64,000 nucleotides of DNA, taken from assembly GCA_039621445.1 (NCBI GenBank), contig CP154954.1, forward strand, positions 7,017,425 to 7,081,424, in the 5' to 3' direction. This document shows, one piece after another, positions 18,001 to 59,200 of this stretch (its first letter is position 1; every line of letters starts with the position of its first letter). The notes beneath the pieces were generated by a model. It did no database searches. It worked only from the letters and a program-made list of their open reading frames with translations, and was not told where the DNA came from. This DNA comes from Euglena gracilis (lineage: Eukaryota). A program made the translations under genes and the position numbers.

Positions 18001-21000
18001 GGGTACTCAACCCCAAGCCCCAAAGCCTTTGTCAGCCCATGGGATGGTGGTGGTAGTGTTAGCGTGGTCCTGCTCCACATGGCAGCTCTGCCACAGGACT
18101 TGGTGCAAATGTGACGCTGGTTATGTGATTCAATTGGTGACCCTTCCTGTTTGCCATTCAAACCTCAGCACAGGCAAACGGGCCGGGGGGTGACAGGAAA
18201 ATGGACTACCCCACTCGCCAATTCTTTGAATCCACAGAATTCTCAAAGTGGACAAATCTTCTCAAAGTGGAACCCCAAGCCGCGTTGGGTTGGGCAATTC
18301 ATTAAATCTGATTAACATCAAACAATAGTTGTCGAGAACGGACCCCTCAACCCGTCAATGAATAGTTATCCAGCGACGACTGTCGGCAAGTGTCAAGTAT
18401 TTTCTGGGTCGGGTCCGAACCAGATTTGAGTTCGTATGTCTGCACCGTTGCCTCTGGACAGCGGCTGCTTCGCACCACATTTTGGCCAAGAACTCCGTCA
18501 TTGCCTGGGATTATGGCCCTGTGCAGGCCGTGCTGTGTGGCCTCTTGAAAACTGCACACAAAGAGAACCACCCACCATTCGTTTGTGTGGGTGATTGCGT
18601 GCATTCTTTAACCCATGACACCCCCGGAGGGGGTGTTGTGGGTGGTTGGGTAGGTGGGCGAGATGTCAAAAATTGTTTTGGTGGGTTGGCAACCCAGAGG
18701 GAATTACCTGGGCAACCCTGAAAAAGTACCCCATCGGAGGTTGAATAGCTCCCCCCCCCCATCCAAACACCGTGCCTTGAGACCATACCGTTGCTTAAGG
18801 TGTGTCTGACACCACTCCCAATCTTCAAGGAAGGTGGTTTTCAATGGCTTGTTGGCAAAAAGGGCCAAATATTTTGGCATTTGCCCTGCGGCATTCACAA
18901 GCGAGTGAGGAGTAAGAAAAAGTAAGAAACGTTGGACAAAGTGCATAATTTCTTTGCGAACTCACGCTCCGAGTAAATTCGAATTTTTTCAGAGCCGGCG
19001 CCACCACTCCATCCCCAAACTAATTCGGATACTGCGTGACCGCTGTGGCGCATGCGCTGGCACCAACCGCCCTCACACCACCAGGCAGAAGGTTTCTTCG
19101 GCGGTACATGCTTGTGGTCCGAGTTATCCGAAAGACAGTGTCAGTCAGCCTGTGTGCCAGCTCCCCCCCCCCCAGGAATCGGCCAAACAGTCAGGGTGGT
19201 GGGTGGGGGGGGGGGAGGGTCGACCCCCACCTCCTCCTGTATTTCCAGGAGCACCGATTTTCGATCCCAAATATTTTTTCCAGGCCTTCGGCCCCGGGAG
19301 GAAATCTGTGAAGAATGCTGTGGTGGGTGGGGGGATCGACCCCCCCCCCACCGGTGTGCCCCACCCCCTCCGGCGACCCCCACACCGCCGCCTGGCGCCG
19401 TGACGTGCAAGCTGTTCCCGCTCGGCGGGCTGGAGCAGCCGTTCATCGACCCGGACACGGGCCGGTTCGTGAAGACCTCCATCGAGTGCATGTGCGCCGG
19501 CGCCCAGAGCCCCGCCCAGGCCGACAGCAAATGGCGCCATGCATCCATCGCCATGAAGTTTCGATGCCCCCCCCCCCCCCTATGTCGAAACCCCAACCTA
19601 GTTGGAGGACACCTTTTTGGAGGTTTTGTCCAACTTCTGCATTTTTGCTGCCCAAAAGCTTCCATTTTGTAAACTTTTTTTTTGGCAAAAATTTGTTCAA
19701 AAAAAAGAAAAAAACAGCAGTGCCAAAAGGATAATTTTAACTTTGGGGGGTTGGGTCTCGGGCACCCCACCAGTCTGTGGAATTTGTTTTGGGCCTCTTG
19801 TCAAACGACCGACCTCCAGGTTGGAGGGCATCTTTTTGGTCAACCATCCATCCAATGCAGGGAGCGCTACCCCTGGGCTCCAAGCGGGCCTTCCAATCTC
19901 CCTGACGTAACCAGGAATAAACTTCGGCCCCAGCCAGTTCTTTCTTTTCAAACCAGGCAGATACGGTCTGCCAGCATCACGGAGTGCCTCAAATTTGTCG
20001 ACAACAAAATTCCCAGCAAAGTGGAACAGGCACCGTGGTAGCGGCTGCGCCACAGACTCCTGTCGCACTTCTGAAAATAGCACCCAGACAAGTATCAGAG
20101 ACACACAACGCTCTTGAACTTGCGAAGCCTCATTTGGCAAGTGTCAGTGCTTTTTGTTGGGTTTCCAGCGTTTCAACTCCATAAGTGCAGGTCATGAAAT
20201 GCTGGTTTCCTGAATGGTCTAGTGGGCGTTTTTCAGGGAGTATTTCTCTTTTTTTTCGCCTTCCAACCGGCTTGGAGATGCCTACCCTCCCCCCTATGTC
20301 CAACGACCCCCCTATGTCCAATGACCACCCCCCCGGTCAGAGGACACCTTTTCGGAGGTTTGACCAAATTTTTGGTCCCGGCGCACCGGGACGAAAAATT
20401 TTGCCCAAAAATTGGCCAAAAATTTGGCCAAAATGCCATTCTTGGCACTTTTTGGACAAAAATTTGTCAAAATTGCCCAAAATTTTCGGCGCGAAGCGCC
20501 GGAATGGAAAATTTGGGCATTTTTGGGTGGGTAGGGACCCGGGTACCCACCAACTTTCTTTTGACCCCATGTCCAACGACCACCCCCCCCCCCGGTCAGA
20601 GGACACCTTTTTGGTCACTACCCTATGTCCAACGACCACCCCCCCCCCCCGGTCAGAGGACAGAGGTTACCGGTCATTGGACATAGGGGGGGGCGGGTAC
20701 TTAAAGTTCACTTGGCACGCGATTCCTAACTCCAGCCTCCAACCTACGCCGGACCCGGCACCACGCGCCGCGGCTGGACCTCGTCGTCAGCGCGGAGGTG
20801 CGGCAGGTGCTGGACAAGAAGTGGGACGCGTTCGGGCAGCGCATGTTCTACCGGAAGCTGGCGGTGGCCCTCGGCACTGTGCTGGCCTGGACCGCCGCCA
20901 GCATCATTCCCGCCCAGGGGGTGGCTAGAGCTACTCTCCCCCCCATGCCCAATGAACGCCCATGCCCAATGAACAGGGGGTGTTCGGACTGTCTAGCTTA

Positions 21001-23186
21001 GTCTAGATTGTCACCTTAGTTAGTGTTCATTGGGCTTGGGGCGGGGGAAGGAAGGAAAGGGGGTACCATGCTAAAACCCTTCTGAAGAGGTACCCCCCAA
21101 GGAACTCAGCAGAACTTGTCCAACCCTCTCTTTTCGCAACCTCTTCCCATGTCTTGGAACCTGTCCCCTACTCTTCCCCCCCCGTTTTTTTTCGACTTTT
21201 TGGCCCGAAATGGCCGAAAATGGCGTCGGAAGCCTGCCGCGCTATTTCGGGCCGTAAATCAACCATATATCGGGCTTGGTGGGGAGTTACGGGGAAATCA
21301 AAATACCGTTAGATAGGGCGTTCCAAGGGCTTCAATTTAGGTCTGACATTTCCTTTGATTTGCTTCATTTCCGATACATTTTTAAAACATCGATTTTGCT
21401 ACATTGTGGATATATTTTGAAAAAAATCGATTGATTGACCAAAAAAAAAAACGGCCGAAAAGCACCCCAAAATGGCCGGTTTGGGCCACAAAAGTGCTAG
21501 GCGTGTCGGCGGCCAAAACGGCGAACAGGGGGTGATAGAGGGTCTCTAGGGGTACATTTCGTCAGAACCACATTTCTGGAAATATTGTAAGTTTTCTCGA
21601 GATATCTTCGAAAATCGATTTTTTGACCGAAAATCTCACCCCGGCGAAATGGCAGAGTCGAAACTGGGGGGGGTGGCGAATCCGAGTTTGGACCCCTTCG
21701 TGGCTGAATAACTCGGGCCTGGCGGGGAGTTGGGGGTCAAACGGAGGTGATTTGGAAACTCAGTGCATTTCCCCCCCATGAAGCTAATCCATGTATTGGA
21801 CCTGCTGACCTGTCGGACCAACGGTGCGACCAAAACAATGATTTTTAATGAAAAAATAAACATTTTCCATTTTGGAAAACAATTGCTCTTCGTCAGCTGG
21901 AAGCCGAAAGCCCTGTCCCCCAACCACTACAGCCTTGCCGACCAGAACCGCGTGGACTTCCCAGTGGCCAACGCCGTCATCCAGGCGCTGGAGCTGTTCG
22001 TCTTCCTCTCGGTGAGCTGGCGGGGCCTGTGCGTGGTGTACAGCAACTGCCTGCCCACCCATGTCAGTATCGTTCAGGGCTTCGTCGTTGGGCTTTTGGA
22101 TTCCTCAAGCCTCCAAAAGGCTGAGGACTGCCTTTTTTTTTGAGGTTTCTTCATTTTGTGCTTGGATCGGGGGGAACCAAACTATTGACATTCTGTATTT
22201 TTCCATGATTATTTTTTTGAGGAACCAGGAGATTTGCACGCCAGGTGGCACATGAACCGGGTCTCGCGAGCATATATGTACACATACACAAGTTAACGTG
22301 CACGTATGCAGGTACATATAATATATACACATATGTATGTATATGTGTATGTATATATATACATATTTACATATATACACACACATATGTACATATATAT
22401 ACACATATACCCACAAGCACACGTGTGCCATGGCTGCAATAAGGCCACACCAACCAAGGATTATTTTCGGTAAATGTTGGCATGTACAAATCAATCAGTG
22501 ACGAAGTGACACTTTCTTTTTCCCCCCTGTCGAACTTGTTGAGCACACATGAAGAAAGCTTCAACTACAAATGGGCTGTTTAGCTGAGAGCCTGCCTTGA
22601 GGGTGCTGCGGTTGGGATGTGCCAGTTTTTGGGGCTGGCTGCAGCAGCGACCCTGTGAGTTCTTGTTCAACATGCAGCACTGTAGTTTGGGTATTTCAAA
22701 ACGTGTCCGGATGCCCCCAGGGGCAGGTGGCACACCCAGTAATGTTCATTTAAGTAATTTTAATTTTATTCCCCCCGCCCGCTTGTTCAAGGCTGTGCCA
22801 TGATCTCGTATCAACAGCACAGTTTTTTTGGTATTTGAGAAAGCCTTCTCTCTCTACTTTGATCATTTGGCTGGATCTGTGATCCAAAACAGAACCGAAA
22901 TTACATACAAGGGCCATCTACCACTTGCACACTGGGTCGTTCACCCCCCCCCCCCGCCGTGTCCCAGAACATTGGCATCTTGGACAGGGGGGGAACGGGA
23001 AATAAAGAAGTAACTCAAGCTGGGGCCAGCCCGGCCGGAAACAAACTGCCTGGGGTGCGCAGCCGTGCTCGGGAGACCCACGGCGCGGCGGCGGTGGAGG
23101 CGGCGCTGGGCAACGTGTTCTGCGGCTTGTACCTGTCCTCCCTCGCCTTCCGCCCAGGGAACCGCAGAGGGCCGACCCCCACTTGG

Positions 23187-26200: not shown

Positions 26201-28854
26201 GGGGGTGGGGTAATTTTTCCCGAAATTTTTTCTTTTGTATTTTCGGAAGTGCTGGGATCACTCTGGTTACTTGTAGTCAAAAAAAACGCCCCCCCCCCAG
26301 TTTCATTACAGGACGACTAATTTCAGGACGACTTTTCAGGGGGGAAACATCCATCCTAAAATGAAATTCAAACAACGGGGAAGGGGGAGGCAGGGTTTTT
26401 TGGGGGGGGATTCTGGGATGGCGCATCCCCACCCCAGGCACAGGCACATTCTTGCCATCTCCCTTGGAAAAAAATTGCACCCCCATGCACCAGCCAGTGG
26501 GGAGAGGTGTGGTGTGGGGCGAAATTGCTACCTACACCCCCCTCCCCCCGGGAAACTGTCATACCCGAGAAACTGTCAGGTCCCAGGAAACTGCCAGGGT
26601 CCTTGGTTCCGGCCGACCTGTCAGTATGGGTGGTTCGTCAGGTTCCCTGGTACGGGCCGGCCTGTCAGGTGACAGTTTCCCGGGGGGGGGGGGTAGTTGG
26701 GGCCCCTGTTTTTTTTGCAAAATTATTGGAAAGTTCAAGTTTTTGGGTAAAATGGTGGTATATTTTTTTGCGTTGTGGTTGGTTACATTCGATTTGATCA
26801 AATTCTTGCAAAATGGTCAGAAACAAACGTCTTGTGGTGCATTGGTGTTTTTTTTTGTAAATTTCATTTTCAAAATAAATCTGAAGGACTGACAACATTA
26901 CACAACCCCAGCCTTTTGAACCCCCCCCCCCAAACTTTTCAGAGTCCCACCCGGGAACCTTTCAGAGTCCCCAGCCAACCTATCAGTATTGGAAGCTTTC
27001 AGGGTTTGGTTGCTGTTACCAGCCAAACTGTCAGGTGATAGGTGGGGGGGGGGGAGCTATATGAAATTTGATAACCCCCGAGAGTTAGAGGGTTAGAGGG
27101 TGTAGGAAAGGTACACTGGAAAAAATTACGCGAAAAAACCATGGTATCCCATACTTTTTGTCTCCTGTATTTTTGTCTGGACTGTATCCCGTTATTTTTA
27201 GGGAAGAGGTGCAGACCACCTGACCCATTCCCTCATGGTCAGTGGGATGGGTGATTGGTCAGGTGGGCAATGGTGGTGTGCCTTGTCGGCCCCCGGCCTG
27301 CCGCCGTACATCATCCTGGTGGTCATCCTGCTGCTCAACCTGCTCATCGCCATGATGGGCAACACGTACGCTTGCGTGCAGGAGCAGGCCGAGAAGCGCT
27401 GGTACCTGGAGCGGGCCAACCTCATGGCCAGGGCGACTGGGAGGTTGAAACACCCCCTGGGAGTAGGGCAACAGCCCAAATCCCTGAATTGATCTTGACC
27501 CTCCACAGTCTTTCCTGTACGTCTCATCTGTGCCAGCCAGATCAAAGTACCACACGTTTCTCCTGTCTTCCTTGTTTCAGTGCGACACTTGTTTCATCCT
27601 CACCCGGTCCGTTTCCCCCCTTTTCACTGCAGTGCCCACGTGTCATCATTTATCTATTTCCTTCCCCATGATTGCCCTCTGTTTAAAGCACCTTTTGATT
27701 TAAATTCTGCGTGACATGACATGGATAAATTTTAGTCAATGGTCACATCCAAGTTTGCAAAGTTTTTCTCCTGGCAGGAATCTGTTTTTTTAATCCCCAC
27801 CTGCTGTCTACGCCTACCTTCAGGGCCAGCCGTCATTCTTTCCTGTTCTCTCGGCTTGCGCAACTGTTTGACGCATAAAAAGGTCGTGGTTGATTTTCCC
27901 CTGCTGTTGCCCACCCACGTCAGGTCAGCAGCGGTGGCAACGGTGGCCGGCAGAGTGACGATTGGATCCCGCCCCCCTGCAGCGGGCAGCGTACGAGTCC
28001 GAGCACAGCATGGATGAGATGCAGGATATCCGGAAGGAATATGCCACCCCATTCAACCCAGGCTGCTGTGCATCTCCATTGTGGCAATGTGTGAAACAGG
28101 TGCTATACCATTGATTCCCCTCGAAAATACATATACTGTCACCATATTATTCCACATTTTTTTTTCTCTCACAGAGCAAGTAGTGCACGGAAAGCAGCGT
28201 CACCGCCCAAATTCGGTGTTTCAGACCACCCACCCAGGTTTTTAGGTATTTTTGATTGGTAAGTTCCCACGGGGTTGATATAAAAACATCACCACACAGC
28301 TACACGCACGCACGCACGCACACACACACACAAACGGGAAGCGGGTCTGGTGGGGAACGTGGTTACTTGTCACATGTGACCAGTGTGATGCATGCAACGT
28401 GACACATCACCTGCTGTAAGATCTTTCCGGTCCAAGAAAACAGACCAAGTTAGGAACCGAGGATGACAATACCTGACCTGAGGGATACCCACTCAGGGGG
28501 CGTGGAGTGGGGGGTGAGATATTCGACACGGGCCGTGGGATTCAGGGCAGGGTTTGATATAAGGAGGGCGTACATGGTTTAGGTGGGGGTGTCCCCCCCA
28601 CCCCCCCCCTCCTGGCCCGCAGGGGGTGTCCGGACCCCCCCCCACCTGTCCTTATATCGAACCCTGATTCAGGGTTGCCTTCCGCCTGCCCGGCCCGCCC
28701 AGCAGCGTGCCACTGCCAGGCGGACTCCGTGACGAAGCACCTCGAGTTCTGCCTCACCACCACGTCGTGCTCCGAGTCGTGGAAGTTCCGCCGGCCGTCC
28801 GCGCAGCGCCGCCTCAGCGCCGTGCCGCAGTTCTCGATGCTGACCACCCCGTGA
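11108..28854 (+). CDS. TRPV-like (OSM-9/Nanchung/TRPV5-6-like) ankyrin-repeat cation channel, paralog 1, about 682 aa, 24 exons
   Basis: Exons: 11108-11172, 11466-11514, 12126-12212, 12784-12875, 13238-13337, 13703-13772, 14580-14688, 15053-15107, 16131-16148, 16710-16833, 18474-18520, 19400-19513, 19976-20031, 20770-20911, 21922-22071, 23073-23151, 23327-23408, 23672-23729, 24493-24570, 24729-24768, 25781-25883, 27306-27425, 27985-28055, 28715-28854 (2049 nt, ATG to TGA, all phases consistent). Motifs: [24 protein letters not shown]...[65 protein letters not shown], pore [24 protein letters not shown]-box-like WYLERA. A few junctions are ambiguous by 1 nt. Confidence 0.9.
13338..13702 (+). 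other. Non-conventional intron present only in paralog 1
   Basis: gat-CAGgatttgtttgccg ... cggcacaaaaaaatattCTG-agtgg. Paralog 2 is uninterrupted here (exon 50862-51031). The 8-mers outside CAG/CTG are accgggat and agtgggac (5/8 identical). Confidence 0.85.
17375..17998. mobile_element. hAT-like MITE (family E-like) inside TRPV paralog 1 intron 10
   Basis: CAG...CTG ends, perfect TSD gtgggtac, degenerate TIR; hosts a nested family D copy. Confidence 0.75.
17423..17823. mobile_element. hAT-like MITE, family D, nested
   Basis: TIR cagggttcgatataagga...tccttatatcgaaccctg; perfect TSD ggggtagg. Confidence 0.93.
20285..20697. mobile_element. TA-flanked MITE, family C
   Basis: Ends C(n)tatgtccaa...ttggacataG(n) with TA on both sides; internal ggtcagaggaca repeats; homologous copies at 35172, 39246 and 54025. 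Confidence 0.85.
21250..21640 (-). repeat. Dispersed repeat related to the interior of family A copy 1
   Basis: 21271-21345 is approximately the reverse complement of 6823-6895. Confidence 0.6.
23189..23221. repeat. (GT)n microsatellite
   Basis: Perfect dinucleotide run inside an intron. Confidence 0.9.
24571..24728 (+). other. Intron present only in paralog 1 (boundaries uncertain by 1-2 nt)
   Basis: Interrupts [13 protein letters not shown], while paralog 2 reads LTVSPEQCGLEAF without a break. Starts ctc-CAG; 3' pairing is weak. Confidence 0.65.
26535..26693. mobile_element. TA-flanked MITE, family G
   Basis: Ends C(n)gggaaactgtca...tgacagtttcccG(n); related copies at 39675-39976, about 29830-30020 and about 48110-48515. 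Confidence 0.75.
28548..28666. mobile_element. hAT-like MITE, family D, 119-bp deletion derivative
   Basis: TIR cagggtttgatataagga...tccttatatcgaaccctg; perfect TSD attcaggg; lies in the last intron of paralog 1. Confidence 0.92.
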
Positions 28855-29489: not shown

Positions 29490-29762
29490 CAGGCTTCTTT
29501 TTAAGTCACCTGACCCCCCCCCCCCCCGGGGGGGGAGGGGGGGGGGGGGGGGGGGGGGTGCGGGCCGGACCCCCCCCTGGGGGGGGGGGGTCCCGCGCCG
29601 GAGGCGCTGGGTATACCTTTTCGGCGCGAAGCGCCGAAAATTTTTGAAAATTGCCTTTAACGGCCCCGATTTTGGCCCCCCCCCCCCCGGGGGGGGCCCG
29701 TGCCCCCCTGGGTGGGTGGGGGGGGACCCCCCCTCCCCCCCGGGGTCTTAAAAAGAAGCCTG
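29490..29762. mobile_element. hAT-like MITE, family E
   Basis: TIR caggcttctttttaag...cttaaaaagaagcctg; TSD cccccgaa/cccctgaa (7/8). Confidence 0.88.
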
Positions 29763-30022: not shown

Positions 30023-31810
30023 CAGACATTCATTTAGTGTGGTACACCAAGGTTGTCATTTTGTGGTTCACTGTGGACACCACAAAATTTTTTGTGGTTC
30101 ACCTGTGGACACCAAAATTTTTTTTGTGGTTCACTTGTGGACACCAAAATTTTTTTTGTGGTTCACCTGTGGACACCAAAGTAATATTTGTGGTTCACAT
30201 GTGGACACCAAAAAATTTACCACCGCCTGCTGACATTTGCATCATTTTCTTTCTCATCAACAGCAATGAAGCAATCTTCTTTGAACATATTTGACTCAGG
30301 CGGCGTAATTTGGCCAAAAATTCTGGTGCTCTAAAAACAGAAGAGGAAGCGGAAAACCACTTCCAAAAAAAAGGGTCATATTTTCGATTTTTTTTTTGAA
30401 GAGGTTCTGATTTTGGCCAATTCCGGTGGACGTTTGGCTCACAGTGAAGGAGACCTATACAATCGAAAACAGACCTAAAAAGGCCAACTTATTTTCGAAT
30501 TCTAGTAAAATCAACAAAACCAATCAAAAAATACATGAACAGGAGGAACTGACAAAAACAAGCGTTGTTTCTGCTGCCGTAGGCCCCGAAGGAACGAAAC
30601 AGAAAAATTAAAAAATGGAAGCGGTAAATATTGCATTCCGCTTCAAACGCAGGAGATGTGCAACGAAAACTGAACACAGTGAATCATACAGAATGTAATG
30701 TAAAAATGTGCATGATGTTTGCACACCAAAAAGGAAGCGGAAAACCGCTTTGAAAGAATCCGTAACAAAAATAGTATGAATTGAAATGATCAACAATGAT
30801 CACCAAACGATATTCCAATCCCAACAACAACGAAGAACGTTAACATTTATGAAATTTATGAAAATAACAGAAACTGAACAACCTGAACAAAAATTGAATG
30901 TCATTATCCAAAGTGCATAATGCAAACACGTCAAACCACGTGGAGACAATTGCACGATTTACGAAGGGTAGAACAGGCGAAACGATGCAGACCTTCTGTT
31001 CATTTCCCTGTGCTCCACCTGGAAGGAAGAACATTTCGAAATGACATTGGCGTAAAACCTGCAAAAAAACAGAGCAAATATGAAGCGGTTATCCGCTTCC
31101 TCAGGCTGACATAATACTTTTTAATTATCTCATAGTGCCAAACTGCAAAAACTAGAATGAGGCTGACACTTACCCTTCTGAATGAAAAACTATACTGAAT
31201 GCGGTCTTTCATTGAATGGTCAAGTTGAAGATCTGACACCACAGCAATGAAGTGGCTTTCCGGCTCCTACCTCAAAACAAAGCACATGGCATTGATTTTT
31301 CAGGCACTTTTTCAGGCATTGAGGCACTCGGCACTCAACTGACATCCCACAATGCCCCAGAACGCTCTCAATGTCCGCAGCCATGCCAAAGCCCCACGAT
31401 AATGTCGCGTGTTTCTGCTTCCATGAAGCGGAATTCCGCTTCATCGACGCCAGTATTTAACTTTTTGATGGTATCCTTGTTGGGTAAGTTGTCTATACAG
31501 CACGTCTGCTTGAGAACTCTCGATAGCAATCTGTCCAATTTCAACTGCCACGCTTCGTGGATTGAGCCGGGGCCAAGGCTCACAATGTGGCTGAGGTGTC
31601 TAAAGATAAACCCGCCTTTAGGTGTAATTTTTTTTACTTTTTTTCGATCCTCAATCAACTTTTGTGGACCACAAAATTTTTTGTGGACACCACAAAAATT
31701 TTTGTGGTTCACCTGTGGACACCAAAAAAAATTTTGTGGTTCACCTGTGGACACCAGAAAAAAATTTGTGGTTCACACGTCTTTTGTGAACCACACTAAA
31801 TGAATGTCTG
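30023..31810. mobile_element. hAT-like non-autonomous element, family A, copy 2
   Basis: Same TIRs and subterminal arrays as 6595-8187; perfect TSD gggggggt; different AT-rich interior; inserted into the poly-G end of a family G element. Confidence 0.92.
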
Positions 31811-35171: not shown

Positions 35172-35514
35172 CCTCCCCCCCCCCTATGTCCAATGACCCC
35201 CCCCCCCGGTCAGAGGACACCTTTTCGGAGGTTTGACCAAATTTTTGGTCCCGGCGAGAAGCGACGGGACGAAAAATTTTGCCCAAGAATTAGCCAAAAA
35301 TTTGGCCAAAAGGCCATTTTTGACACTTTCTGGACAAAAATTTGTCCAAATTGCCCAAAATTTTCGGCGCGAAGCGCCGGAAGGGAAAGGGGCATTTTTG
35401 GGTGGGTGGGGACCCGGGTACCCACCAACTTTCTTTTGACCCCATGTCCAACGACCACCCCCCCCCCCCCGGTCAGAGGACAGAGGTTACCGGTCATTGG
35501 ACATAGGGGGGGGG
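35172..35514. mobile_element. TA-flanked MITE, family C
   Basis: Homologous to 20285-20697; TA flanks. Confidence 0.85.
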
Positions 35515-35564
35515 TACTGTAACCCTCCCGTCCCGGGCCGGAGGCCCCGGTATGGGTTCCGGAC

Positions 35565-36142
35565 CAGGCTGTTGCTTAAGGGATTGCAGTACCCCCCCCC
35601 CCCCCCCCCCCCCGGGGGGGCTGGACTGCAGCTAGTCCAAATTTGGCTAGTGGGTTTTCTAGCAGACCCCCCCCGGGGGGGGGTCTGCTAACAGGGCTAG
35701 CTAGTGGAAAAATTTTTCCAGTGACCGGCGCGAAGCGCCGAAAATTTTTTTTGGGACCCCCCAAAATGGCCAAAAATGCCCGTTTTTGGCCATTTTTGGG
35801 AATTTTTGGAACAAAATCAGCCAAAAACCTGTTAAAAACCTCATTTTTTTTTTTTTTTTTTTTTTTTTTTATTTTATTTTTTATTTTTTGTTTTTGTTTT
35901 TTATTTTTTTTTTTTTTTTTTTTGAGTTGCATTTTTTCCTCCGGCGCAGTTTTTTTTTTTTTTTTTTTTCCTCCGCCCGCACACAGCGCCGGAGGAAATT
36001 TTTTTTCCCAGTCCGGGGGACCCCCGGACCCCCCCCCCCCCCGGGGGGGGAGGGGGGGGGCTAGCTAGTCCACTTTTTCCAGTGTCTAGCCGATTGGCTA
36101 GCCAGTACCCCCCCCCCCCGGGGGTCCTTAAGCAAAAGCCTG
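35565..36142. mobile_element. hAT-like MITE, family B
   Basis: TIR caggctgttgcttaagg...ccttaagcaaaagcctg; perfect TSD ttccggac; internal poly-T expansion. Confidence 0.95.
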
Positions 36143-36269
36143 TTCCGGACGATGCGCCGAAAAACGTTTTTTAGGAAATGCCCTCAGACGGGGAGGGGGG
36201 TCCCGCGCCGGGCTGGGTGGGGGACCCCCCCCTCCCCCGGAGGCCTTAAAACGAAGCTTGGGCGGCCCA

Positions 36270-39200: not shown

Positions 39201-42200
39201 GTGCGGATGGGACGGCTGTGGTTGTTATTGCCAAACGCTGGTCTATTCCCCCCCCCCCCCCTATGTCCAACGACCCCCCTATGTCCAACGACCACCCCCC
39301 CGGTCAGAGGACACCTTTTTGGAGGTTTGGCGAAAATTTTGGTCCCGGCGCGAAGCGCCGGGCCGAAAATTTTTGTGCCCCAAATGGGTCAAAAATTGGC
39401 CAAAATGCCATTTTTGGCACTTTTTGGACAAAAATTTGTCAAAATTGCCCAGAATTTTTGGCGCAAAGCGCTGGAAGGGAAAATTTGACCTTATTTGGGG
39501 GGTGGGGTCCCGATTACCCGCCAACATTTTTTTTGACCCCTTGTCCAACGACCACCCCCCCCGGTCAGAGGACACCTTTTTGGTCACTACCCTATGTCCA
39601 ACGACCACCCCCCCGGTCGGAGGACAGAGGTTACTGGTCGTTGGACATAGGGGGGAGGGTAAGCACTCTCCCTACCCCCCCCCCCGGGAAACTGTCATGC
39701 CCGAGAACCTGTCAGGCTCCCGACCGGGAAACTGTCAGGGTCCCCGGTACCGGCCAACCTGTCAGTATAGGAAGTTGTCAGGATCCCCGGTGCCAGCCAA
39801 CCTGTCAGGGTCATTTTTCATTGACTTTCCCTTGAAATGCCCTACCCGGGAAACTGTCAGGGTCCCGCCCGGGAAACTGTCAGGGTCCCCAGTACCGGCC
39901 AACCTGTCAGTATAGGAAGTTGTCAGGGTCCCCGGTACTGGCCAACCTGTCAGGTGACAGTTTCCCGGGGGGGGGGTAGGTATCCCCCCCACAGGAAACT
40001 TCCTCTACCCTCTCTACCACTGCCAACTTGTACAGTTTTTTTTTTGCATTTTTTTGCTCGGATATTTTTTCGGCTTGAAAAAATTCCACATGTCATTATT
40101 ATGTCATTTTTGACTTTTTGGTCAACAAATTCCATAATTTTGGAATCATGTTGTTCCAAAAATCTAGTCAAAATACATCAAAGTACAGTTGTATGACGGA
40201 AACGTGAAGGAGCACTTGAAGGAGTTTCCATGCATCGAGCATTTTTGTGATTTTTTTTCTGTCACATTTTCCGAGGGTCTGTGCTGTGCTGTCCCCCTTC
40301 CCTGTTAAGAAGTGGAACACCGACCGCTGGCATTTTTTCCCCTCCCAAAATAAACGCAACGTTTGCACCCGAAAGACAATGATCAGTTCGGCCTCTCAGC
40401 TTGTGAATTCATCCCAAGTTGAGTTCCCAGTGCGGCTGGAAATAACAAACGACCGAAGTTGGCAAAGGAATGTGTGCACTGCAGGAGAATTTCCACCCAA
40501 TCGGATTTCGATTGTGGATGTTTAGATCAAAATCCAACACTAATCGCAATTCCGAAAACGGAATTCTCCCCCAATGATACACTTGGTTGTAGCCCGCAAT
40601 GCGCGGAGATACACCGAGTACTCCAACAACGCGGATTAGCCTCGTTGTTTGGAAACGCGAAAAGCGTCATTCCTAATCACAATCGCAATTACACTTGGTA
40701 CGGATTTGATGCGGAATGGGGAAAACCCCAACCTGTCCAAACTCCCTTGGGATTAACCCTTGAGGTAGTGGAAGACAGCCCGCATGTTTGTGGATCCATT
40801 CATTGTGTTTCTTCACTCCAACCCGGAAATCGGGTGCATGAATACGCGAAACGCGTATGGAATGCTTTCAATTTTGGTCAATGTCGCATTTTGGAACGAT
40901 GGTTTTCCAAAATCGCGTCATTGGCTGATTCCTTTGATTTGGCATTGGAAATCGATGTCTTTTCATCGAAAGCGCATGCCCGTTTGCCACGTCATTGGTC
41001 ACACCACTCCAACGCATTTGATAAATTTTGGGGTGATACGGTGTTATGGGCACAACTGTGGCATGATTATTTTTTCCACGTTTTTTTATCCGTCGGTTTT
41101 TGACGCCAAGTTGGATTTGGAATGCCTTTCTGGAATTATGTGCTGACATTTTTATCTCTTGAGGCATTGCAGCTTGGGCAATTTCCATAGACCCTGTCCC
41201 CACGATCAGCATCCTGATCCACAGCCCAGCAACGCGGGCAGGCCAGACGATACCCATCCTGTTGCATATTGGGTGCGGGGGGCGGGCTGTCCAAAACCTC
41301 ATGGGTGTAAGTGGCGAGTGTGGGATGGGGGGTCCGACGACCATATTCCCATTTATCCAGGTCGCTTTTTCAAATCAGATTTTTTCCTTCAGATTGCCAT
41401 TTTGTGTGTGGGGGGGGGCTTCTCCTCATTCAGCCCTGGGTATCAAATGGTTCAGGGCCTCAGAAGGTGTGGATGTGGTGAATACCCGAGAAATTAGAGA
41501 TGATTGGATGTTGGAATGGACGATGCTGCCAGTTTGGAATGGGTCAACTACCTCCATGTTTTCAGTAGTGGTTTCCAATCACATTCCATCGCCCCGGCCT
41601 GAAATCAACAGTGCAGAACATCCCCCTGCCAGACACCCCGCTCTCCCGGCCAGTCTGTGACTGGAGAGTCTCCCCTCCACTTGGGTTTCATGGCCTGTCA
41701 CTTCTTCTGCACACCATGTGTCGCCCCCATATAGTGAGGTGAGCACCACCTGGCATGTGGTTCACATCATACCATTGCCTGTGTGTGTCCGACCCCCCAA
41801 CTAATTTGTTTTTCTGGCTCTGTCCCAACCGCAAAACAATTTTTTGTTGTTTTGCTCCACCTTCATCGATTCATTTAACACCTTTGGGGTATGCCGCGTG
41901 TCAGATGTTGGCCTTACCGAAGGCCGAGCCAGGAATTTTTTTCAAGGGGTTTCGGCCGATTTTGGCTGGATTTTGGGTGGGTGGGTGTTTGTTGGGTGTG
42001 GTTGACCCGGGGGGGTGGGGTATTTCAAAAACTTGGCTGGGTTGGTATGGGCCCGGGAAAAGTGCCCCCCAGGGGGTTCCTTTTTTTTGGCAGGGGTCGC
42101 AAAGTGAATCCATGCTTTGGACTACGCACCCCCATTTTCCTTGTTTCGCCTGGCAGGACGGCCTTCCTTCATGATGGGGGTTGGTGGGAGGGATTTTGGA

Positions 42201-45200
42201 ACCCTGGGGGGGGGGGGCGTTCAGATGGGTGCGCCGTTCGGTGGGTCGGGGGCTGCCGGCCTCCCCGGCGGTTGCACGCGCCGCCGCTGACGCCGCTGGG
42301 CGGGGCTGCCGCGCCGCCCCCCTTCCCTGGCCGGTGCGGTGCGGCGCGTCCTGGCTGGCTGCGTGCCGGGCGAGGGACCACACCAATAATGCACGGGCCC
42401 CATGCTTGCCACCTGTTTGACCAATTCCTGCTTCCCAATTCCAAATAGGGAGATAAGGTAAGCCCCCCCCCCCCCTCCATGCCGCTGGGGACACTGTCGC
42501 CAGACAAGTTGGCCAGCACCGCAAGCACAGACAGCTTCCCGTGGCCTGATAGTCTCAAATTGGTTATCGAGCTTGGGAAGGGGGGCGTCCTTGATGGGGG
42601 AGAAAATCGACTGGAGGGGAAGCCATTTTGGTTGTTGAGGCAGGTGTTTGGGGGGGGTCCTGACCCCCCCCTCCGGGTAAGGTGGTACCACTGGTGGGGC
42701 GGTCCGAAACCCTCTAGACGTTGGTAGAGGCCTGAGAGGGAGTCCGGACAACTCCCCCTTGGCAGGCTCCAAAATCACTGAGAAGTATTTGGGGAATCTG
42801 CATGCCGGGAAGTTCAAAATGTTTTTTTTTTCTTTTGGTCACAATGCACAGGTTTTCATGTTTCGGTGTTTTCCACATTAATTTAAAATCAATAAAATCG
42901 AAACACTTTGTATTTATTTTCAAGAAAAACAGTTTTCCACATTTTGTGGCTTGGCATCAGGCCATTTGACTGGTCACAGGTATGAAGATTTTCTAGGTCC
43001 CTGATGGGTTTGACACCCCACCCCCACTTTTGGGGATTCCCATGCATCCCTGAACACCCAGAATCCTAAGTAGAATGGTGTTCTGGTAAGGAGCAGCCTG
43101 GTGTAAGGACTGCAGGGTTTTTTTTTCCAGTCTTGGACCACTGGGGGGGTGGGTGGGTCCGGCCGGGCCCCCCCCCCCCCCGGGTCTACTCTACTTAGTG
43201 GGATCTACTTTTCGGCTCCAAAGGCGCCGATTTTTTTTTGAAAAGGTGCTAATTTTTGCATTTCGCGATTTGTGGCCTTTTTGGGGAAAAGTGGGTTGGG
43301 TCCAGGGGTTTTTTTTTAGCCTTGGACCCCCCCCCCCCCCGGGGGGTGGGGTAGGGGCTGGTGGGTATATCTTTTTCGGCGCCGAAGGCGCCGAAAATTT
43401 TGAAAAGGTGCTATTTTTAGCATTTTTGGGCAAAAGTGGGTGGGTCCCCCGGGACCCCCCCCCCCTCCCCCCGGGGGGGCCCCACCCCTGGGGGTGGGTG
43501 GGTGGGTGCCGACCTTCTCCCCCCCCCCCACCCCTGGTTGGGTCCCCGGGACCCCCCCTCCCGCAGGGGGCCCCCCAGGGGGTGGGTGGGGGGGACCCCC
43601 CTCCCCCCGGTCTTAAAAATAAACCCTGAAGGGCTGCCACAATTATCGATCATTTCTCTTGTATCGCATACCCAGCAAAATGGTTCTCCAATGTTGAGCA
43701 AGTAAAAAATGATTTCCAAAACTTCAGTGTATCTGCCTAGTCTAACAAGGCTGTGACAAAGAGGCTTTTTTTCTGCATCTCTGTGCGCGTGTGTGTGCGC
43801 ATGCGCCCGCACACGTGTGCGTGTGCGAACATGTGTCTTTCTGTGACTGTGTGTGCGTCGTTTCCTCACCGCACCCTGCTCAGCTTTGCCGAGGTTACCT
43901 GCCCGGACGACCCGCAGGCAGACGGGCAATCGCTGGACGCCATCGCTGAGCACAGGCTTCCGTTTTATTTGCTTTTTTCCACCATTGTTGGAATTGGTTT
44001 TTTCCCTGCAAGTCTATCGCTTCGCTGTTCCGACGGTTCAACATCGAGATTTCCTCAAGCCGGACGGTATCATGCCACTCCTGGGGACCCTCGACTCACC
44101 CAACAGTGTTCGGGAACACCTGTTGGGCGTCCACTCCGCCCTCCAGATTTCCATTTGTGCTTTTTTCCATTGCCGGTGCCGACGGAAGCGTAACTGGGGC
44201 ACAGTGTGACGGTCTCGCCAAGCCCCTGGGGCTGACCAACGGCTCAGACTTGGTTCCCGGCTCAGTCCCACGCCCGCTGTGCACCGGCAAGGTTGCCGGG
44301 GAGACGGCGGGGGCCACACAAACGAGCGGCCTGTGGGGGCCGCGGGGTCTTTGTGCCTGCAGGGCCGTGGGGTCTTTAGAAGCTGATTTGATACATGGAA
44401 AAAACCAGCCTTCGCATGGAGGAGGTAACTGGTGGTCGAAATCCTCAGAGGCGTTGGGCACAACTGTTTGAAAGTATCCCTAGGCTCTGTTTACCTGGCA
44501 TTTCATGTGATACAGTGCGGATGTAAAAAATGCATTGATGTAGATTAATGCATATAACATATTATGTACTTTTTCCAAAGGCATCATTGTCAGAACCATC
44601 CATCATCATCAACGTCCTCCTCCTCATCAGCACAGCCATCCTCGTTAATATCACTGTTGCTCCACTCTTATTAGCATGCTAGTGGTAGCGCAGTGTCAAC
44701 GTTTTTGTCGTTGTTGTGATTGTTTGTTGCTTTGCTGCAAGGATGTTTTTTTGGGCCAAAGCCAAAGGATTTCCTTGTATCTTTTCTAACGCCATTTTTG
44801 TACGAAACTTGTGGGAAACATCTCTATACACAACCCAGGATTTTTTTTACAGGGAGGTTGCACCACCCATCCACGCTTCCAACCCTTCCCATTTTTCTGG
44901 AGCGCTTATTTTTAGTTTGTTTTAAAATTTTTTAAGAATACATGTCATGCTTAATCAATATGTCAATGCAGGTCCACTGGTCCCCAACCACGTCTCAGTC
45001 GAATGTAATTTGCTCCGGAGAGTTGCCTCCACAGTCGCCGAACCGGCCGTCCGCAGTCCCAACCATTCCTTGTCGGTCGTCGGGGGAGAGAGGAAGGTTC
45101 CGACTAGGATGGGATCCCCGGTGATGTCCCTAATGTGATCGAGCTTTTGGGGATGGACACCCATCGTTCATTTCACACCGGTGTGACCCCACCGCTGGCT

Positions 45201-53212: not shown

Positions 53213-56200
53213 GTATATGTATATATTGTATATACATATATTATATATTATTATATTTTATAATTTTAATTTTTTTGCATTCTTTTTGTCTGTTAGTTTA
53301 TCAAAGTGGGTCATCTTGACCATTACAATGTTGAGGGGGGAGGGGCTTAGACGGCCAACCTCGCATTTAAGTGTTTTTTTTTGGTGTGCGCAAATGCCCG
53401 CATGTTGGGGGTTTTGACTGTTGCACCAGTGTCACAAGAGCGATGGGCGAAATGTGGCTGAAATGCACTTTTTGGCCCTGGCAGCGGGGATGTGTCCCGC
53501 CAAATTGTGTTGCATTGCGACCAGAGAGGTGATCACACAACTGGGGAACGATTCATTACACCCATGGTTTGAACAAAGAAGGTCGATGTGCGCACTTTCG
53601 CGCATCACCTACTCCAGGGTTCCCCCGAACAACGGCCAATGAATACCCCAGAATTCACACTGCTGAAAATGGTGTGCCAAATGGAACCTTCGTGTTACAC
53701 AAATTTATGAAGTGGGTGTGAGTTTGCGTATTTGCGCACATCGACCACCTATGTAATTGTGTGAATGGTTGGTCTGCGCATTCGCACAAATCGACATGTG
53801 TTTCATCTGGAATGTTTATATCGTGGTCAGTGTGCGCAAATGCGCATGTCGTCGTGGTGTGCGCATTTTGCACTCCGACGACGTGCATCTTTACGCACGT
53901 GTTTGGTGTGTGCAAGTGTGCACACCGACCACGTGCAAATTTGCGCAAATCGGCTTTTTATTCCAATGTGTTATTTGACACAAGTTTTTTTTTTCAATTT
54001 ATGTCTGTTTTCAGATTGAGACTACCCCCCCCCCCCTATGTCCAACGACCCCCCTATGTCCAATGACCACCCCCCCGGTCAGAGGACACCTTTTCGGAGG
54101 TTTGACCAAATTTTTGGTCCCGGCGTGAAGCGCCGGGGACGAAAAATTTTGCCCAAAAATTGGCCCAAAAATTTGGCCAAGATGCCATTTTTGACACTTT
54201 TTGGACAAAAATTTGTCAAAATTGCCCCAAAATTTTCGGCGTAAAGCGCCGGAAGGAAAATGTTGGGAATTTTGGGGTGGGTAGGGACCCGGGTACCACA
54301 CCAACTTTCTTTTGACCCCCATGTCCAACGACCACCCCCCCGGTCAGAGGCACTTTTTTTGGTCACTACCCTCTGTCCAACGACCACCCCCCCGGTCAGA
54401 GGACAGATGTTACCGGTCATTGGACATAGGGGGGGGGGGGGTACGTCGTTGGAAGCCCTCCCATTTATTGTTTTTTAAAAGGCTCAGGCGAGCGAGGTTC
54501 ATATGCTGTGATACTTGATCGCATTCCTTTGCACAAATGTGTACATGAGGTAGGTTTGTGTGCAAATGCGAACACATTGATGGTGTGCGCATTTTCGCAT
54601 TTGCGCAAACCGACCTCATCTTCTGTCCCCGATAAACCCTGGTCATGAAAAGAGACAGTGTTCTGGGAAGTTCTGTCATGCCATAATGATTGAACTCCAA
54701 TTCCATCGTCCAAGGTGGTGGCATCACTCGGTATCAAACCAGGATGCAACACCCAGCAAGTACAGGTAGCACGTACACGCCAATACCCATATGCGCAACA
54801 GCATAATTACTTAGAAACCTTCGTGTTTCCTAACTCGCATCGCGAGGTGTGCAAGTAACAAAATTTTGTGTTCCCTGGTGCAATCGGCGGGTTCAGGGGT
54901 TTTTGTGACAAAAAAAATTGCGCATTTGTCCGCATCAACAAAGAAAATAGCTTAAGCGCGAGTTTTGCTTAAGCGCGAGTTTTGCCGCCTAAGAGGGGGT
55001 GGTCACCCCTTCTTTCTCCCTCCTTGACCACTGGTGGGGTGGGGACCATCCAGTCCTCACCCCATCCCGTGTTATTGTTGCGTCGCTGTCGCTCCTCACC
55101 CACTCACTCTGATAGCTTTACGGCAATTGCGGGGGCTCTGCAGTAACTTTCCACGTTGCCCACAAACCGGCACTTTAAATGCTTCCCTGGCTGAGCGTCA
55201 TAATTTGCCTCCGCCGGCCGTCTTCAGCACATCCTTGCAAAGTCCTCCGTTATTGCATGGGACTACGGTCCTGCACAGGCGCTGCTGGACCCAAGTTAGA
55301 CATCCCCAATCGATTTTAAGAGCTCATATTTCCCTCCTTCCAGTGGCCATTTTCTTCGTTTCCATTTCCATTTCCATTTTCATTTTTTTTTTGGTTTATT
55401 TAGCTTCCAAAATATGAATGTGCTTCCCCAGAATTGCTTTTTTTACAGGTTCTTTGTGTTGTTAAAGCGCTTTCATCACTTGTTGTGAAAACAGTTGTAT
55501 TCTTTGTACACCTACAATTGGGGTATTTTCGAACCTGGATTGCTGTTTGGGAACCCAGCAAATCGAAGGAACGTGTTGTCTGAAGAGTCCAAACACGCTC
55601 TCATCTTTTGACTCCTTTTTTTAAGCTTCAAAATGGCCACCACCTTTGAATTGCCGGTGAGTCCACCTGTTCTACGTTATTATTATTGTATGTTTATTAT
55701 TTTGTGTATTTCTATGCATACGTTGTATGATATTTATTATTTATGTTATTTTTTTTCCTTCGAATTTGTAGTTGTCCAAATTCCTTCTTGTTTTACAGGA
55801 TGAATGTTTGCCGAATCTGGCACATGGCCGAAGAATTGGGGTTTGGCACACGTCAGGGTGCCTCCCCCAACCCACGCCTGACCCCATCACCTGCAAGCTG
55901 TTCCCCCTCGGCGGCCTGGAACAGCCGTTCCTCCACCCGGAGTCGCAGGACCCCATCCGCACTGCGATCGGCTGCCTGTGTGCCGGGGCCCAAAGCCCTG
56001 TCCAGGCGGGGTATGCCCCGGGGGCTGGGGTGTGGTGTGGTGTGGCTGCCGCTGTTCTAATTCAGCGAACCTCCCCGCCCCCGCCTGCCCCGTCACGCAG
56101 TGCCTCAAAATGGTGGACAGCCGCATCCCCCGCCCCGTGCAGCAAGCGCCGTGGCCCTGGCTGGGATCCTGCCGCCGTCTTCCGGAAAGCAGATTGATGG

Positions 56201-59200
56201 GAATGCCGATCAGGATAGTTGCAGGCGGTCGGGGAAGGGGTGATCTGGCAGATGACTGGAGGGTACCAAAGGATTCCCGCGGTGCCTGCCTCGGGTTTTT
56301 CTCCACTGGTATTTTCGGCGGTTCAAGGCCTTGCCAGCCAACCCCCCCCCCAAAGTGAATGAAATGTTATCCAGCAATTTGTTCGAGATGGTGGGAGAGG
56401 TGCGACGCGGCATTTTATCTGAATATAAAAACCTGATCCCAACCAGGCTTGTGACGACTGAGAGGGGAAGAAGCTTGTGGCTGGCTAAAAACGGCCAACA
56501 ATGGATGAATTCGGGCAAATGTGAACTAAAGTGGCCAAAAGTGGCCAAGAGCGGGCGAAAGTGGGCAAAAGTGGGCAAAAGTGGGCAAATGGTCAAAAGT
56601 GAACATAATTGGACAAAAGTGTATGGAGTGGATGCAGGTGAGGTTGTGGACGGAGTGGATGCAGTTTTTCAGGGAATGCAGGTATTGGAGGTACACCACT
56701 AAAGGACTTCAAAGGCGATGCTGTGCGATGCTGAAAGATGCCGGGCGATGCTGGGCCCAAGGGCATGGTTGACCAAAGCTGCTCGATCGCCAGGAACCTG
56801 CCGACAGTACAGTATGTGCTTGGCCCGCTGCACGCCATCCTCCTGGTGTCTCTCATGCAGTCCGATTGCGTCGGAGATGCCTAATTTTCAACGCCCAGTC
56901 AAACCACGATGAGGGCCACCCGGGGCCACGCGCCGCGGCTGGACCTCATCGTCAGCGCGGAGGTGCGGCAGGTGCTGGACAAGAAGTGGGACGCGTTCGG
57001 GCAGCGGATGTTCTACCGGAAGCTGGCGGTGGCCCTCGGCACCGTGCTGGCCTGGACCGCCACAAACATTTTGCCCGCCCAAGAATAGCCCACAATTCTT
57101 GGGGGGTTCGCTCACTCAGGGGCTTTAGGCGTGCCATTCCTGACGTTTGTCAGTTTAACTTGAGTGTTCTGTTTATTTTTTCATTGTGTCAGTGTTGTTG
57201 TTTTTTATGCAACAAACAGACATCTAACCCCCGAATACGTCTTACAATTTTGCACGAGGGTGGCATTGGTTGTTATCTCAAATATGTATCCTGGAGGATG
57301 GGACATTTTCACCATTTCGTCCCATTCATGAAGTCGCCCACCAAGAGGGCTGCTCTGTCCCCCAACCACTACGGCTGTGTGGGCTACTGGGAGGCGGAGC
57401 ACCCAGTCCAGGCCATTGCTTAAGGATTTGAAGTACCCCCCTGGGGGGTGGCTCGATTGCAGCTGGTTCAAATTTGGCTGAAATCCCAGTGGACCCCTCC
57501 CCCCCAGGGCGGGGATCCGCTCAGCCAGCTGGTGGAATTTTTTTTCTGGACCCCAAAACTTGCCAGAAATGCCCATTTTTGGGGGTTTTTTTTTGAACAA
57601 GATCACCCGGAAAAAAATAAACTGAAAACCATTTCCACCTCGGCGCGCAACACCAGAAGAATTTTTTTTTTCAGTAGGGGAACCCCCCCCCCCCCGGGTG
57701 TGGTCTACCTGCTTTTTCCGGTGTCCAGCAAAATGGCTGCAGACCCCGGGGGGGGGGGGGCTGCTTTAGCAATGGCCTGACCCGATCGCCCACGCCGCCA
57801 TCCAGGCGCTGGAGGTGCTGGTGCTGCTGTCCACCGGCTGGCGCGGCATCGGGACAATGTGGAAGGCCTGCCTGCCTTCGAACCGCAGCGTTGGCCAGGA
57901 ATGGGATGGGATGGTGGCGTGCGGGGGTGCCCCGACCCTTGGCCAATTGGGAGAATTTTTGCTTTTTTTTAGGATTGCATTTTTTTTCCTTCTAAAGTAG
58001 TTGTTTTCGTTAATTGTTCTGGATGACCACCAAACAGGTTGAAAATGCCAAAACTGGCATAAAAAAGGCCAACAGTCCCCAAAATTGCCAAGGGTGTGTC
58101 CAAAAGCCACAAACAATTGGCTTCAAATAGCCAAAAATGTTCATATAAACCCATACATGGCCATTTTTTCCACCTGAACTGCCCCCTGCCCCCCCCCCCC
58201 CCGTCTTACGACCCTTTGGTCAGAGACAAATATTAGTGGTCATTGGGCGACGGGGGGGGGGGGGTGATAAAAAGAACCAGACTGATTTTTTTATGGTTAA
58301 TTTGACCGACATTCTTTTCAGTCTTTGGGTGGGATGTCCTGCAAATGCACTCGACAATTATTCACAAAACCCTTCAATTTTTTTTTGGATCTGCCCCTGC
58401 ATTTTTTTCTATTACTATCTCCATTGTCATCAGGTGTGTCCTCTGTGCTGTGTCCATTTAAAGTTAGGTCAAGGTTAGGATTAGGGTTATGGTCAGGGTT
58501 ACCTCAATCTTTTGATGGTTTCTTCTGCGGTGCTTGCGACTGAAAACCCAGCCGCCCCAACCCCTTCCTGCGCTCGAGATTCACGGCGCTGCTTTGTTCG
58601 AGGTGACCCTTGGCAATGTGTTCTGTGGGCTCTACCTCATGTCGCTCGTCTTCCACCCAGGGCAACGTGCTGGGATTTTCCCCCATTCCCGACTTATTTG
58701 AATATTTTCTTTTTGGAGAGTTTTGTGTACTTTTGTGTAGTTTTGTTTGTTTGTTGGTGTATTTTTGTGTAGTTTTGTGCTCAGGCTGACATACCCGTTC
58801 GCTTGGGAAGATGCTTATCCCAAGAAATGTTCATGCCAGAAGGACTGTCAGGCCCAGCCATGTGCTCATTCAAACCTTGTGTGACCCTCCCGGGAAGAAT
58901 TGGTGGGGGTCTTTCTGACAGTCTTTTTGCCGGCTGGGTTTGGCCCGGTGTGCCCCTGGTGGGGTTGAGGTGCGTTTGGCCCATCCGGTGGCCAATTTAA
59001 TCAAAACTATTTTTCAACGGCTTTTGGGATTTTCTTGGTTCTTAGACTGAGCCCCCTGTTCCAGGGGGCTTTTATTGAACCTGCAGCTTCCCTAGAACAC
59101 AACTCAAAGGGTAAAGAAACGTTTGTATTTCCCCGGTCCCAGGCACCGCAGGTATTGTCTGGGTTTCTGACCCGTCAGGTCACAAGCAGTCATGCCTCCC

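Follow-up and report, generated by a model that had tools for sequence, protein, structure and literature searches.

We report here that a coding exon of Euglena gracilis is interrupted by a sequence that is probably a spliced nonconventional intron born from a transposon. The analysis covers a 64,000-nt stretch of contig CP154954.1 (positions 7,017,425 to 7,081,424 of the forward strand), hereafter the window, and all coordinates below are counted within it. The window is nuclear Euglena DNA. Two paralogs with many exons lie in tandem on its + strand, paralog 1 at ~11.4-28.8 kb and paralog 2 at ~47.5-63 kb, and their products are ankyrin-repeat proteins whose C-terminal part is channel-like. 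The predicted intron lies in paralog 2 at 57406-57784, and its body is a MITE (miniature inverted-repeat transposable element) that belongs, by its sequence, to a dispersed family with two further copies in the window (family B).

Homology of the paralog 2 exon ends at 57405 (...PNHYGCVGYWEAEHP) and resumes at 57785 (IAHAAIQALEV...). The same stretch is uninterrupted in paralog 1 and in two transcript-derived relatives, EG_transcript_3144 (P0002) and EG_transcript_820 (P0003), P0002 reading ...EQHPIAHVA... straight across the split site. The insert between the two exon halves starts with CAGGCCATTGCTTAAGG, and its far end is the reverse complement of this start with 2 mismatches in 17 (15/16 matching positions by a second count). 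It is flanked by 8-mers, ACCCAGTC and ACCCGATC, that match at 6/8 positions. The features of the split exon are as follows.

57363-57405, + strand: upstream half of the split paralog 2 exon, ending ...PNHYGCVGYWEAEHP; start given to +/- 3 nt, the upstream intron boundary being able to slide
57401-57408, no strand: upstream copy of the target-site duplication, ACCCAGTC; first 5 nt exonic, last 3 nt the 5' spacer of the intron
57406-57784, + strand: predicted nonconventional intron, 379 nt, i.e. the element plus one 8-nt duplication; borders from the published code (PMC12501133; this and the other papers are cited from parts of their text)
57409-57779, no strand: MITE, 371 nt, distant member of family B
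57409-57425, + strand: 5' terminal inverted repeat, CAGGCCATTGCTTAAGG; CAG at intron +4 to +6
57763-57779, + strand: 3' terminal inverted repeat, matching the 5' repeat at all but 2 of 17 positions; CTG at intron -8 to -6; pairs with the 5' repeat in the minimum free energy (MFE) and centroid folds
57780-57787, no strand: downstream copy of the target-site duplication, ACCCGATC; first 5 nt the 3' spacer of the intron, last 3 nt exonic
57785-57892, + strand: downstream half of the split exon (IAHAAIQALEVLVLLSTGW...SNRSV); first base A, a purine
21919-22071, + strand: the same coding stretch in paralog 1, uninterrupted, 51 codons

Cutting out 57406-57784 restores the reading frame (PNHYGCVGYWEAEHP/IAHAAIQALEV...) and yields 51 residues, the length of the paralog 1 stretch, whereas retention of the insert leads to a stop after 6 codons. 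The boundary cannot slide, because 57406 is G and 57785 is A, while 57405 is A and 57784 is G. A search of 57000-58200 against Rfam returned three matches, every one far under its gathering score.

These borders agree with the splicing code worked out experimentally for nonconventional introns, which account for ~72% of the introns of E. agilis (PMC12501133). As described there, such an intron needs a CAG that a 3-nt spacer separates from the upstream border, a CTG that lies 5 nt short of the downstream border, ~12 nt of complementary sequence adjacent to CAG and CTG, and preferably a purine opening the next exon; five of five fully synthetic introns made to these rules were spliced in E. gracilis, and a CTG-to-CTA change stopped splicing in the assay (PMC12501133). 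In paralog 2, CAG at 57409-57411 occupies +4 to +6 of an intron starting at 57406, and CTG at 57777-57779 occupies -8 to -6 of an intron ending at 57784. The two arms are complementary at 15/16 positions and close both the MFE and the centroid fold; the fold of the insert has a z-score of -3.5, and none of 100 shuffles folds as well. An A at 57785 opens the downstream exon. All four published sequence features are present in the predicted intron. Its borders under the code are GT...CG, so that the candidate signals are CAG, CTG and pairing, and not spliceosomal GT-AG. A sequence-only reading of the window had placed the exon split at EHP/IAH where paralog 1 is continuous, had described the inverted repeats and the 6/8 flanks of 57409-57779, and had derived from the frame a cut 3 nt before CAG and 5 nt after CTG that removes the element and one duplication length. 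Direct inspection, paralog 1 and the two transcript-derived relatives bear this out, and the proposed cut turns out to be that of the experimentally defined code.

The agreement suggests how the intron could have arisen. A non-autonomous cut-and-paste transposon with CAG...CTG terminal inverted repeats and a hAT-like 8-bp duplication would have entered the coding exon of paralog 2. The element would have brought all the signals of a nonconventional intron with it, namely the CAG and CTG that open its two complementary arms. Since the spacers of 3 and 5 nt add up to the length of the 8-bp duplication, a machinery that cuts 3 nt ahead of CAG and 5 nt past CTG would take out the element together with exactly one copy of the duplication. 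A single target copy would remain, composed of 5 nt of the upstream and 3 nt of the downstream duplication, and the pre-insertion frame would be restored without a scar. We infer that the RNA is cleaved at these borders; nonconventional introns are reported to leave the transcript in circular form.

The body of the insert was compared with the two other members of family B in the window.

7257-7660, no strand: family B copy with the perfect 8-bp duplication TTCCCCAC (7249-7256 and 7661-7668), nested in a CAG...CTG element at 6595-8187
35565-36142, no strand: family B copy with the perfect 8-bp duplication TTCCGGAC (35557-35564 and 36143-36150), 83% identical to the 7257 copy

In a MAFFT alignment of the insert with both copies the mean column identity was 70%. 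By blastn, the insert matched 7257-7547 with 66.3% identity over 300 columns (E 4.2e-17, or 3.9e-18 with the low-complexity filter on), and the local alignment score was 92, compared with 13.0 +/- 1.6 (maximum 19) in 200 dinucleotide shuffles. The match to the 35565 copy was weaker and piecewise (72% of 87 and 84% of 44; score 42, shuffles 13.7 +/- 1.7). Because identity is 83% between the two non-genic copies and only 66% between the insert and its nearest relative, the insert is placed as a distant member. From these alignments we conclude that it belongs, at subfamily distance, to a mobile family with CAG...CTG ends that produces target-site duplications of 8 bp. The inverted repeats and internal blocks that had been listed from the letters alone as common to family B are found in all three sequences, the perfect duplications of the two dispersed copies are likewise confirmed, and an alignment of 57409-57779 to 7257-7660, whose failure had been named in advance as fatal to the proposal, is highly significant. 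Family B copies measure 371-578 nt, too short to encode a transposase, and carry terminal repeats of 17 nt. A 22-nt family B motif gave no match in a metagenome scan. The family B profile also matches an internal module (~profile positions 143-342) at 17520-17707, 20378-20594, 35272-35472, 39332-39552 and 54143-54273. The element families appear, from these matches, to share internal modules and to differ at their ends.

Family B is one of several such families in the window. We scanned for CAG...CTG pairs with terminal 14-mers that are inverted repeats of each other at 12/14 positions or better, with 20 block shuffles as the control. The window holds 33 pairs, nine of which have 8-nt flanks matching at 6/8 or better, six of these nine perfectly; in the block shuffles 3/250 pairs reach 6/8 (Fisher p 2e-7 for the window's 9/33). 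The nine fall into about four families: 6595-8187 with 30023-31810, 17423-17823 with 28548-28666, 29490-29762 with 43113-43628, and family B. The six elements outside family B (6595-8187, 17423-17823, 28548-28666, 29490-29762, 30023-31810 and 43113-43628), from about three families, have duplications of 7/8 or 8/8. Two of these six lie inside paralog 1 introns, and 28548-28666 derives by deletion from an element of the 17423 type. The nesting of the 7257 copy in 6595-8187 is a plain sign of transposition into non-coding DNA. Chance resemblance, of the insert or of the elements, was rejected by the shuffle controls for terminal repeats, 8-nt flanks and alignment score.

An 8-bp duplication and CAG termini are traits of the hAT superfamily, and other superfamilies also make 8-bp duplications. 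The insert had been called a hAT-like MITE. Its small size, lack of coding capacity, terminal inverted repeats and 8-bp duplications agree with a MITE; "hAT-like" is a lead only, because no transposase was seen in the 9 ORFs searched and 8-bp duplications are shared with other superfamilies.

Several observations weigh against a transposon-born intron that is spliced at 57406-57784. The nearest family copy is just 66% identical to the insert, its relation to the 35565 copy is patchy, and the 64-kb window holds three full-length family B members in all. No transposase or other Pfam family was found in 9 long open reading frames (ORFs) outside genes, chosen from 55 ORFs of at least 170 aa. The Jukes-Cantor (JC) distance between the intron and its family copy, calculated from the blastn identity, is ~0.45, not much below the synonymous divergence (dS) of 0.66 between the paralogs. 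An in-frame GT...AG alternative, 57406-57769, keeps both exon halves. Finally, no transcript-derived paralog 2 protein was found in the protein collection, whether queried with exon 12 or with the downstream half-exon, the latter in two search modes; paralog 2 may be silent, or the window may not come from the strain or species of the transcriptome. These blanks are weak, since the downstream half-exon query missed even a known relative.

The last of these points bears on whether paralog 2 is functional at all. With exon 12 as the query, the only relatives in the protein collection were the E. gracilis transcriptome products P0002 and P0003. In P0003, Pfam recognizes Ank_2 (E 9e-16), and Ion_trans reaches 20.8 bits, under its 25-bit cut-off. 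Identity of the two products to the window exons ranges from 33 to 100% per block, and neither gene is identical to them. Insertion of the element could have broken paralog 2, leaving an untranscribed or unspliced pseudogene in which the match to the code has no consequence. Such an outcome would fit the presence of a redundant tandem paralog 35 kb upstream, the early stop that a retained insert creates, and the lack of a paralog 2 product in a collection that contains those of two relatives. However, all 18 modelled exon blocks of paralog 2 join in frame and are stop-free. The nonsynonymous divergence (dN) between the paralogs is 0.20 and dS 0.66 over 532 codons (dN/dS 0.31); the paralogs evolve under purifying selection. 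The exon half directly upstream of the insert is nearly identical to that of the expressed relative P0002 (PNHYGCVGYWEAEHP compared with PNHYGCVGYEEAEQHP), and the insert carries four of four published splicing features. We consider a pseudogene unlikely. Two pairs of exon blocks, 13221-13337/50845-50961 and 20771-20908/56936-57073, have dS of 0.12-0.13, while the other blocks mostly have 0.3-1.3; the low values suggest that the tandem paralogs have undergone gene conversion.

Spliced paralog 2 would still leave the choice of borders, on which the other introns of the two genes are informative. Adjacent exon blocks were joined in frame and the products scored against P0002 and P0003, which gave models for 36 introns. 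The exact code was found at a homology-supported, in-frame junction in 14/36 (7 per paralog, the intron at 57406-57784 included), one half of it in 15/36 and neither half in 7/36. A purine follows all 14 exact-code introns. The junction script ranked the intron at 57406-57784 lower because P0002 has one extra residue there, and this intron was verified separately. Directly after the downstream half-exon follows another exact-code intron, 57893-58575. For the insert itself, 21 in-frame, stop-free GT/GC-AG pairs were listed, among them the pair at 57406-57769, which would add QWPDP to the protein; removal of 57404-57779, giving ...EHHPIAH..., ranked first against P0002 on account of the same extra residue. 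Against these borders, the acceptor of the GT...AG pair (...GGGGGGCTGCTTTAG) has no pyrimidine tract and its donor reads GTCCAG, a GT/GC-AG junction was the best solution in none of the 36 modelled introns, and 57404-57779 matches no known signal, whereas the code-based cut gives the paralog 1 length exactly. Removal of the insert at either pair of borders seems very improbable to us.

The flanks of the exact-code introns resemble target-site duplications more generally. Over the 14 introns, 49/112 positions of the 8-nt flanks match, compared with a 27% background (p 1e-4), and 43/104 match when the intron at 57406-57784 is left out (p 0.001 for the remaining 13). The excess over background points to faint duplication remnants as a general feature. 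Within this set the intron at 57406-57784 has the best inverted repeat (15/16) and the joint-best flank match (6/8). Among the 36 modelled introns no other is a copy of family B, whose two remaining copies lie outside exons.

Some introns of the two genes deserve mention in their own right. A reciprocal case is a 365-nt exact-code intron of paralog 1 at 13338-13702, which is missing at 50961/50962 of paralog 2; paralog 2 and both transcript products read through the site (...LLDRHPELLNAE...). Its 8-nt flanks match at 5/8 and its arms at 9/16, and it has no relatives elsewhere in the window. In the shared pair 20032-20769/56148-56934, positions +4 to +6 read GTG and positions -8 to -6 read CAC, with spacers of 3 and 5 nt and a purine next, and this pair suggests that the machinery could measure from the helix end instead of reading CAG as such. 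In the shared intron 12876-13237/50347-50861, paralog 1 has CTA at -8 to -6 where paralog 2 has CTG; paralog 1 may splice poorly there, or natural introns may tolerate the change. In some introns (20912-21921 of paralog 1; 16834-18473), CAG and CTG are one base out of register, with spacers of 3 and 6 nt at the only length that keeps the frame. Either the strict spacer rule has natural exceptions here, or the exon models are wrong at these places.

We then considered the age of the insertion. None of the 15 introns at shared positions can be aligned between the paralogs (best matches of at most 33 nt), whereas the intron at 57406-57784 aligns to its family copy over 268/379 nt. Because it still aligns to dispersed copies and the shared introns no longer align to each other, insertion after the gene duplication is favoured. 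The opposite order would have the transposon-derived intron predate the duplication and be lost precisely from paralog 1, with no gain specific to paralog 2. Presence and absence cannot be polarised from two paralogs alone, and the JC distance of ~0.45 is of the same order as the dS of 0.66 and so compatible with an older origin and loss. The exon blocks of low dS suggest gene conversion, which could also erase an intron. Set against this, frequent gain of nonconventional introns has been reported (PMC3935182, PMC4770533), and the inverted repeat and flanks at 57406-57784 are the best kept among the 14 exact-code introns. An older intron with precise loss appears doubtful, slightly more so than a pseudogene. 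The insertion is nevertheless not very young, as both the 66% identity to the nearest copy in the window and the 6/8 duplication indicate, and its earlier description as a MITE "caught becoming" an intron is not borne out, since the insertion is not fresh. The accompanying description of the intron as specific to paralog 2 is sound in that paralog 1 and both transcript products lack it; its gain after duplication, which the description implied, is favoured and not proven.

Since the 1990s there has been no settled account of how euglenid nonconventional introns arose. Both the intron class and the MITE hypothesis are already known, and the locus is a real and useful example with an explicit link to a mobile family. 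It supplies a group of mobile elements in which clean 8-bp duplications occur, and one of these elements lies in an exon and carries the exact, experimentally defined splicing signals. The sum of the spacers, 3 + 5 = 8, explains why the predicted excision restores the message. With a Euglena assembly and RNA sequencing (RNA-seq), the MITE hypothesis becomes testable genome-wide.

We also put forward, tentatively and as a nearly even question, that the nonconventional splicing code as a whole could be the RNA-level mirror of one transposon superfamily, with CAG and CTG corresponding to the termini, the pairing to the inverted repeat, and the 3- and 5-nt spacers to the 8-bp duplication. Two observations support this: the flanks of the 13 other exact-code introns match above background, and the GTG...CAC pair keeps the +4/-8 geometry. 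If it were true, every element of this type that inserted into a transcribed exon would start out as a scarless intron, whichever way it pointed, and the target would only have to offer a purine as the sixth base of the duplication. The whole class of nonconventional introns would then descend from this superfamily, and excision would be the work of an endonuclease and ligase system that measures structure and became established to tolerate such insertions.

Similar conversions of transposons into introns are known outside the euglenids. Huff et al. in 2016 reportedly described introners as MITE-derived spliceosomal introns of Micromonas and Aureococcus. As in the present case, an intron is said to be created there when a DNA transposon bearing inverted repeats inserts and duplicates its target site, the duplication permitting exact restoration of the mRNA. 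Introners are said to differ in being spliceosomal GT-AG introns that take one splice site from the element and one from the target, unlike the CAG/CTG, pairing and fixed 3/5-nt offsets seen here. Nor does family B form a large intron family, a single family B intron being seen in the window. The label "introner-like", which the sequence-only reading had used, was dropped, given one intron copy among 36 modelled introns and signals that are not spliceosomal. Maize Ds, a non-autonomous hAT element, can reportedly be spliced from pre-mRNA (Giroux et al. in 1994, cited in PMC3935182). It is said to share the 8-bp duplication, the CAG-starting termini and the intron-like behaviour after exon insertion, and to differ in its imprecise, spliceosomal removal at cryptic sites. 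For the insert, membership in the same superfamily is a lead, no hAT transposase having been found in the 9 ORFs searched in the window. The invasive intronic elements of Amoebophrya are likewise non-canonical introns with inverted repeats and target-site duplications, but their duplications measure 3-5 nt, and they belong to another lineage and have other end motifs (PMC11282704).

Among euglenids, a MITE origin of nonconventional introns was proposed in 2013 (PMC3935182) and repeated in a 2024 review (PMC11282704) and in the 2025 paper on the code, which states that the origins "remain unclear" (PMC12501133). The 2013 hypothesis rested on inverted repeats at intron ends alone, its authors noting that euglenid genomes had so far yielded no identified transposable element (PMC3935182). 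In the 2024 review, CAG and CTG are depicted as inverted repeats and the repeats at the junctions as resembling duplications (PMC11282704). In the open literature, subscription papers and supplements lying outside the search, we found no paper that ties a nonconventional intron to an identified transposon family with 8-bp duplications, and the parts of PMC12501133, PMC11282704, PMC4770533 and PMC3935182 consulted do not state the 3 + 5 = 8 relation. A precedent published in 2016 is the nonconventional intron 4 of E. agilis gapC, which is strain-specific and hence recent and, like the intron described here, is flanked by eight-nucleotide direct repeats (PMC4770533). Its authors attributed the repeats to double-strand-break repair, and the part of the main text consulted, supplement aside, reports no related mobile family (PMC4770533). 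With euglenid nonconventional introns in general, the predicted intron of paralog 2 shares CAG at +4 to +6, CTG at -8 to -6, adjacent complementary arms, a following purine and the lack of GT-AG borders, and most introns of its host genes are of this type. It differs in that, whereas the papers, in the parts cited, infer a MITE origin from intron ends only, its body is a recognisable copy of a dispersed transposon whose non-genic copies carry 8-bp duplications of their own.

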